64,000 nt of DNA, from the NCBI RefSeq assembly GCF_053078305.1, contig NZ_CP166879.1; one strand, 5' to 3'. Below are positions 56,069 through 56,322 of this stretch, piece after piece. Below the pieces are notes generated by a model. It had not been told where the DNA came from and searched no databases. It worked only from the letters and a program-made list of their open reading frames with translations. The position numbers and the translations under genes were made by a program. How positions within the stretch are numbered: position 1 is the first letter of the stretch; the number at the start of each line of letters is the position of its first letter.

Positions 56069-56219
56069 GTTCGTGTCTCCTGAAAAAAAATCGTTCTGAA
56101 TAAGTGTAAACGCGCGATTGTACCATTACCAATAGCGCTTTTACTATGTTGTGACCTCGGTTCCGGGAAACAAACCTGGCCAGACATTGTTACACAACAC
56201 TCCGGGTAATGCATTCCAA

Positions 56220-56239
56220 TACTGTATATTCATTCAGGT
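56220..56239. promoter_or_regulatory. LexA (SOS) box in the divergent ssb-uvrA promoter region
   Basis: TACTGTATATTCATTCAGGT fits the CTGT-N8-ACAG SOS-box pattern. Confidence 0.7.
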
Positions 56240-56322
56240 CAATTTGTGTCATAATTAACCGTTTGTGATCGCCGGTAGCACCATGCCACCGGGCAAAAAA
56301 GCGTTTAATCCGGGAAAGGTGA

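Follow-up and report, generated by a model that had tools for sequence, protein, structure and literature searches.

The LexA operator between the divergent ssb and uvrA genes of Escherichia coli and its coupling to the uvrA promoter

Introduction

The operator lying between uvrA and ssb belongs to the classic SOS boxes and was described between 1982 and 1985; LexA is reported to repress transcription of uvrA in vitro, a result attributed to Sancar and colleagues in 1982 (Nature 298:96), and to our knowledge every compilation of the LexA regulon includes this site.

The published picture of the locus is that of one SOS box between ssb and uvrA, able to control both genes and regarded as a LexA binding sequence, with a heterology index of 6.98 (Fernandez de Henestrosa et al. 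2000; reviewed in PMC9505508); for the shared box PMC9505508 cites Brandsma et al. 1983 (Nature 305:243). The 18-mer core ACTGTATATTCATTCAGG has been given as the uvrA LexA motif (PMC3009722). The box is described as overlapping the -35 region of uvrA, and ssb as having three promoters of which LexA is able to repress the most distal only (PMC9505508); the LexA-repressible distal promoter was reported by Brandsma et al. 1983 and 1985, as cited in that paper. Among the closest systems is that of Salmonella, where ssb and uvrA have a common box with a heterology index of 6.99 and nalidixic acid raised uvrA 11.2-fold and ssb 9.6-fold (PMC8072944).

Position and sequence of the box

The window analyzed here is a stretch of 64,000 nucleotides (64 kb) of contig NZ_CP166879.1. 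A first-pass annotation, made from the letters alone, had proposed a LexA box at 56220-56239, about 85 bp from uvrA and about 150 bp from ssb, and direct reading found the 20-mer TACTGTATATTCATTCAGGT exactly there. The two genes are divergent, their spacer is 254 bp long and a single box lies inside it; 84 nt separate the box end from the uvrA ATG and 152 nt its start from the ssb ATG, in good agreement with the distances proposed.

55532 to 56068, minus strand: ssb coding sequence, 178 aa, from the open reading frame and its translation; annotated ssb or ssb1 in matching E. coli genomes
56220 to 56239, no strand assigned: LexA operator (SOS box) TACTGTATATTCATTCAGGT, from the weight matrix, the K-12 identity and conservation
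56323 to 59145, plus strand: uvrA coding sequence, 940 aa, from the open reading frame; annotated uvrA in matching E. coli genomes

The core CTG-N10-CAG occupies positions 56222-56237, with CTG at 56222-56224, CAG at 56235-56237 and the AT-rich centre TATATTCATT between them, so that the site follows the arrangement of the 20-bp consensus TACTG(TA)5CAGTA. The pattern CTGT-N8-ACAG, which had been claimed for it, is missed by one base, as the core reads CTGT-ATATTCAT-TCAG and its right half is thus TCAG. At one mismatch that pattern occurs 17 times in the window, where shuffled sequences predict 15.9 +/- 3.8; since this is the chance level, the simple pattern alone proves nothing and a weight matrix was used instead. 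The box is also a poor palindrome, with 5 of 10 half-site positions matching, and is too imperfect to be reported by an inverted-repeat search of the spacer, which returned only two short GC palindromes (56108-56119 and 56131-56142). An Rfam scan of the whole window placed no RNA family in the ssb-uvrA spacer.

Weight-matrix score

Published E. coli LexA sites are tabulated in PMC3009722, and 18 of them, not including the uvrA/ssb site, were combined into a symmetrised position weight matrix. As the first-pass annotation led one to expect, the score of the box is not poor: at 18.2 bits it is the top match in the 64-kb window, the next two matches reaching 12.3 bits. The exact tail probability of such a score is 3.5e-7 per position, equivalent to 0.022 expected occurrences per 64 kb, and 100 simulations of the window under a first-order Markov model did not once reach it. 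Compared with the leave-one-out scores of the 18 known operators (6.5 to 28.7 bits), the box ranks 14th of 19; it lies inside the range of known operators and above the genomic background. Judged by this score, the uvrA/ssb box is a genuine but mid-to-weak operator, and its middling value agrees with the published heterology index, given as 6.98 (PMC9505508) or 6.2 (PMC11228462).

The two 12.3-bit matches sit in other intergenic regions of the window, the fdhF-yjcO spacer (32890-32909) and the acs/ytcB-nrfA spacer (42474-42493). We regard both as chance matches, 0.6 being expected per 64 kb at this score and each of them being without one CTG/CAG triplet.

Identity with the published operator

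The 20-mer is identical to the K-12 uvrA operator and, in the alignment, the whole spacer differs from that of K-12 MG1655 by no more than one additional A, close to the ribosome-binding site of ssb. This base belongs to an A-run at 56083-56090 on the plus strand (T8 on the ssb strand) which counts 8 A here and 7 in K-12, and whose length differs among relatives too. The run adjoins the following element.

56077 to 56081, minus strand: ssb Shine-Dalgarno sequence AGGAG, next to the T8 run; cAGGAGa is conserved in the ssb-anchored sequences

Gene order and orientation are the same in K-12 MG1655, and a 1.2-kb query across the spacer found the locus, its two genes being annotated ssb and uvrA, in 5424 of 5426 complete E. 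coli genomes; the lexA gene of the closest complete genome is ~13 kb past uvrA. The same promoter fragment serves as the uvrA promoter cassette in a published plasmid. The idea of a LexA box common to divergent ssb and uvrA is supported by the identity with the K-12 spacer, by the motif of PMC3009722 and by the descriptions in PMC9505508 and PMC8072944; on sequence identity the box can be equated with the published uvrA/ssb SOS box, a genuine site that has been described before as serving both genes.

Elsewhere in the window, a segment of ~9.35 kb (13966-23319) has no K-12 counterpart and stands between yjdP and yjcS in place of the K-12 rpiB-alsRBACEK (D-allose) genes; only 410 of the 5426 complete E. 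coli genomes contain all of it, with annotation as a hybrid sensor kinase/response regulator, a sugar ABC transporter and a carbohydrate kinase. The Rfam scan also found naRNA4 elements (REP/BIME-type) forming arrays with repeats ~100-114 bp apart in the yjdM-yjdN and gltP-yjcO spacers, five copies at 1678-2161 and six at 33648-34285, with single copies at 4638-4718 and 44819-44890. Two expected K-12-type features were recovered as well: the small RNA sraL/ryjA adjoining soxR (52128-52268, plus strand, 153 bits) and the fdhF selenocysteine insertion element (31125-31179, plus strand, 87 bits).

Conservation in related species

The first 300 aa of UvrA served as query in a single scan of species-representative genomes. 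It yielded 80 loci, which belong to Enterobacterales, Pasteurellaceae, Vibrionaceae, Alteromonadales, Aeromonadales and others. The Enterobacterales count refers to the 48 loci that reach far enough upstream, and the promoter counts given below to 49 sequences.

All 48 Enterobacterales species have ssb divergent from uvrA and one LexA-like box in the spacer, scoring from 12.5 to 21.8 bits (median 16.4). The spacer box beats the best match in the ~3.6 kb outside the spacer in 47 of these loci and ties with it in the remaining one. When the sequences were anchored on the box, mean column information was 1.65 bits within it, against 0.20 in the ssb-side flank and 0.48 in the uvrA-side flank; the CTG and CAG triplets were invariant, at 2.0 bits in each column. 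The box is thus conserved at the orthologous position in related species.

Beyond the Enterobacterales, the divergent ssb-uvrA arrangement with a box was found in seven of seven Pasteurellaceae and in one Tolumonas; three of the Pasteurellaceae loci have a weak box, with two distinct boxes among them, one of 8.4 bits in two loci and one of 10.9 bits in the third. In Vibrio the gene upstream of uvrA is galU, not ssb, and a strong uvrA box (22-25 bits) is kept. Nine loci of Pseudoalteromonas, Alteromonas and Shewanella (L056, L059, L061, L063, L069, L070, L074, L076 and L077) serve as a natural negative control for the E. coli-type LexA box, as nothing above 3.4 bits was found in the 400 bp upstream of uvrA. 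Strong boxes of 21-23 bits are present in other Pseudoalteromonas loci (L065, L067, L068 and L080), and uvrA therefore appears to have entered or left the SOS regulon inside a single genus.

Promoters of uvrA and ssb

A generic sigma-70 and terminator scan of positions 55950-56450 returned no promoter and no terminator. The empty promoter scan is explained by the fact that both conserved promoters of the spacer are of the extended -10 type with a poor -35, and the assignments below consequently rest on conservation and on the literature.

56247 to 56255, plus strand: uvrA extended -10 TGTCATAAT, with TG at 56247-56248 and the hexamer CATAAT at 56250-56255, from conservation
56117 to 56125, minus strand: ssb proximal extended -10 TGGTACAAT, ~95 bp from the box, from conservation
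56141 to 56146, minus strand: candidate -10 of the middle ssb promoter, TAGTAA, picked by eye in the ssb-anchored sequences, ~20 nt upstream of the proximal -10
56213 to 56242, minus strand: expected region of the distal LexA-repressible ssb promoter, with candidate hexamers read from the sequence

An element resembling TGnCATAAT is present in 48 of the 49 sequences, with column information of 1.1 to 2.0 bits, and in 43 of these it starts exactly 7 nt past the box. The spacing has remained fixed while the surrounding spacer diverged, as would be expected if operator and promoter act as a unit. The -10 implies a uvrA transcription start near 56262, relative to which the box spans roughly -43 to -24; the -35 position (~56227-56232) falls inside the LexA box, so that the operator overlaps the core promoter of uvrA, in agreement with PMC9505508, and its poor hexamer fits a dependence on the TG motif.

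On the ssb side, TGnTAnA(A/C)T was found in 42 of 49 spacers, in 35 of which it is placed 50-58 nt upstream of the ssb ATG. This proximal element is presumed to be LexA-independent, and we infer that it is one of the published constitutive ssb promoters. The candidate for the middle promoter reads TATCAA, TATAAT or TATAAA in relatives (judged by eye, with no formal count); we assign 56141-56146 as its -10 with low confidence, in a manner consistent with the three promoters of PMC9505508. The proximal and middle elements are 75-105 bp from the box, and LexA bound to the box is thus presumed unable to occlude them.

As for the distal promoter, two pairs of hexamers can be read around the box. 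The first has the -35 TTGACC (56242 to 56237), an 18-nt spacer filled by the box and the -10 TGGAAT (56218 to 56213); the second has the -35 ATGACA (56252 to 56247) and the -10 TATACA (56228 to 56223). The flank TGCATTCCAA adjoining the box is moderately conserved (0.3-1.0 bits), and TTGACC is restricted to Escherichia and some Citrobacter (the window, L002 and L003). Together with the cited literature, these candidate hexamers would place the repressible distal promoter of ssb over the box.

A CGTTT motif is conserved 4-8 nt downstream of both extended -10s, that of uvrA (56256-56265, TAACCGTTTG) and the proximal one of ssb (56104-56116, CGCGCGTTTACAC); it may be a start-site context.

SOS control of uvrA and of ssb

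In RNA-seq data obtained with AZT, uvrA was induced 3.9-fold with a lexA dependence of 4.4-fold, and ssb 1.5-fold with a lexA dependence of 1.0, that is, none (PMC11228462). A time series gave log2 changes of up to 3.2 for uvrA and 1.8 for ssb (PMC11002266). During normal growth uvrA was moderately SOS-dependent by ddPCR and ssb was the same in the wild type as in lexA3; three microarray studies saw no induction of ssb, RT-qPCR found it LexA-dependent only after strong UV or gamma induction, and a constitutive-SOS strain overexpressed it (PMC9505508). The SOS induction of ssb is inconsistent across studies, and the asymmetry between the two genes is what the anatomy of the spacer predicts, namely a tight geometric coupling of the box to the uvrA promoter and a partial control of ssb. 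The proposal that both genes are under SOS control is therefore sound for uvrA, whose LexA control is clear, and has to be toned down for ssb, where control is weak and conditional (PMC11228462, PMC9505508).

The same asymmetry could mean that the box is effectively an operator of uvrA only, its position upstream of ssb being a by-product of the divergent genes and ssb standing effectively outside the SOS response. The lack of lexA dependence of ssb with AZT and the three microarray studies point that way, and so does the geometry: the offset between the box and the uvrA -10 is 7 nt in 43 of 48 sequences while the distance from the box to the ssb ATG varies over 115-259 nt, the proximal ssb promoter, itself conserved, is ~95 bp away, and Vibrio has a strong uvrA box despite having galU, not ssb, upstream. 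We nevertheless find this reading on balance unlikely; it is partly right as to magnitude, but is contradicted by the LexA-dependent induction of ssb seen by RT-qPCR after UV or gamma irradiation and its overexpression under constitutive SOS (PMC9505508), and the 9.6-fold rise of Salmonella ssb with nalidixic acid (PMC8072944) and the LexA-repressible distal ssb promoter of Brandsma et al. 1983 and 1985, as cited in PMC9505508, stand against it as well.

The T before CAG

The base preceding CAG is T in this box, and A or C in all 18 training operators; at the symmetric position, after CTG, all 18 have T or G. T before CAG thus occurs in 0 of 36 training half-sites, yet it is retained in 46 of 48 Enterobacterales species, and the adjacent columns of the box centre and right half are largely conserved too. 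The centre and right part (ATAT...CATTCAG) are in fact conserved beyond what a LexA site usually needs, which suggests an added constraint, and Figure 1 of PMC9505508 shows an ArcA site in the spacer, which its legend mentions. From this it might be argued that another regulator or a promoter element chiefly accounts for the conserved island, the likeness to a LexA site being secondary. We hold this to be very improbable: the columns that never vary, each at 2.0 bits, coincide exactly with the CTG and CAG triplets contacted by LexA, the variants of relatives stay LexA-like (for example TACTGTATATTAAAACAGGT in L007), and an overlapping promoter element would supplement the control by LexA, not replace it.

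A more tenable, though still doubtful, possibility is that within a true LexA site selection, and not drift, has kept the operator weak and asymmetric, for the sake of a sub-optimal LexA affinity or of a second overlapping signal. If this were so, the sub-optimal affinity would set the basal level of UvrA, or the overlapping signal would be the distal ssb promoter or the uvrA -35 region.

That the box is a functionless chance CTG-N10-CAG in an AT-rich spacer, as the frequency of CTGT-N8-ACAG at one mismatch in the window (17 against 15.9 expected) would by itself allow, has a negligible probability, being ruled out by the score (18.2 bits, 0.022 expected per 64 kb) and by the conservation of the box in 48 of 48 Enterobacterales, seven Pasteurellaceae and Tolumonas while the flanking spacer is down to ~0.2 bits per column, and being at odds with the identity to the published operator.

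Discussion

The site at 56220-56239 is almost certainly the E. coli uvrA/ssb SOS operator, a single site for one LexA dimer in the 254-bp spacer of two divergent genes. Identity with K-12, matrix score, conservation and the spacing between box and promoter were computed here, and LexA binding and expression come from the literature. In the undamaged cell, LexA bound to the box would cover the uvrA -35 and spacer region and block RNA polymerase; upon DNA damage, RecA-stimulated self-cleavage of LexA would free the promoter and uvrA would rise about four-fold. The same dimer would overlap only the most distal ssb promoter, the two others, including the extended -10 at 56125-56117, lying 75-105 bp off and presumably beyond its reach; expression of ssb would therefore stay high and rise modestly under strong SOS induction. 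The non-canonical right half, with T before CAG, and the middling affinity would fit a substantial basal expression of both genes.

A clean phylogenetic footprint is made up of the box, the uvrA extended -10 at its 7-nt offset and the presumably LexA-independent proximal ssb promoter, and this footprint would account for the long-debated weak SOS response of ssb. Beyond correct annotation, the significance of the operator is small.

Among known systems, the K-12 uvrA/ssb SOS box is the same site: the 20-mer, the gene order and the orientation are identical, and the spacer is the same but for one A. The difference from K-12 is one of strain background only, the window being ~98% identical to K-12 and having the 9.35-kb accessory segment elsewhere. 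Salmonella enterica has an equivalent arrangement in another genus, with a single box (index 6.99) common to divergent ssb and uvrA and induction of both by nalidixic acid, although the 9.6-fold induction of ssb reported there exceeds that of most E. coli studies (PMC8072944). The operators of umuDC, sulA and recA share the motif CTG-N10-CAG with its AT-rich centre and likewise bring about repression by overlapping the promoter; they are, however, single-gene operators which score 20.6-28.4 bits in the leave-one-out test and give 8- to 56-fold induction (PMC11228462), whereas the uvrA/ssb box scores 18.2 bits, has T before CAG, serves two divergent genes and is associated with an induction of about four-fold or less.
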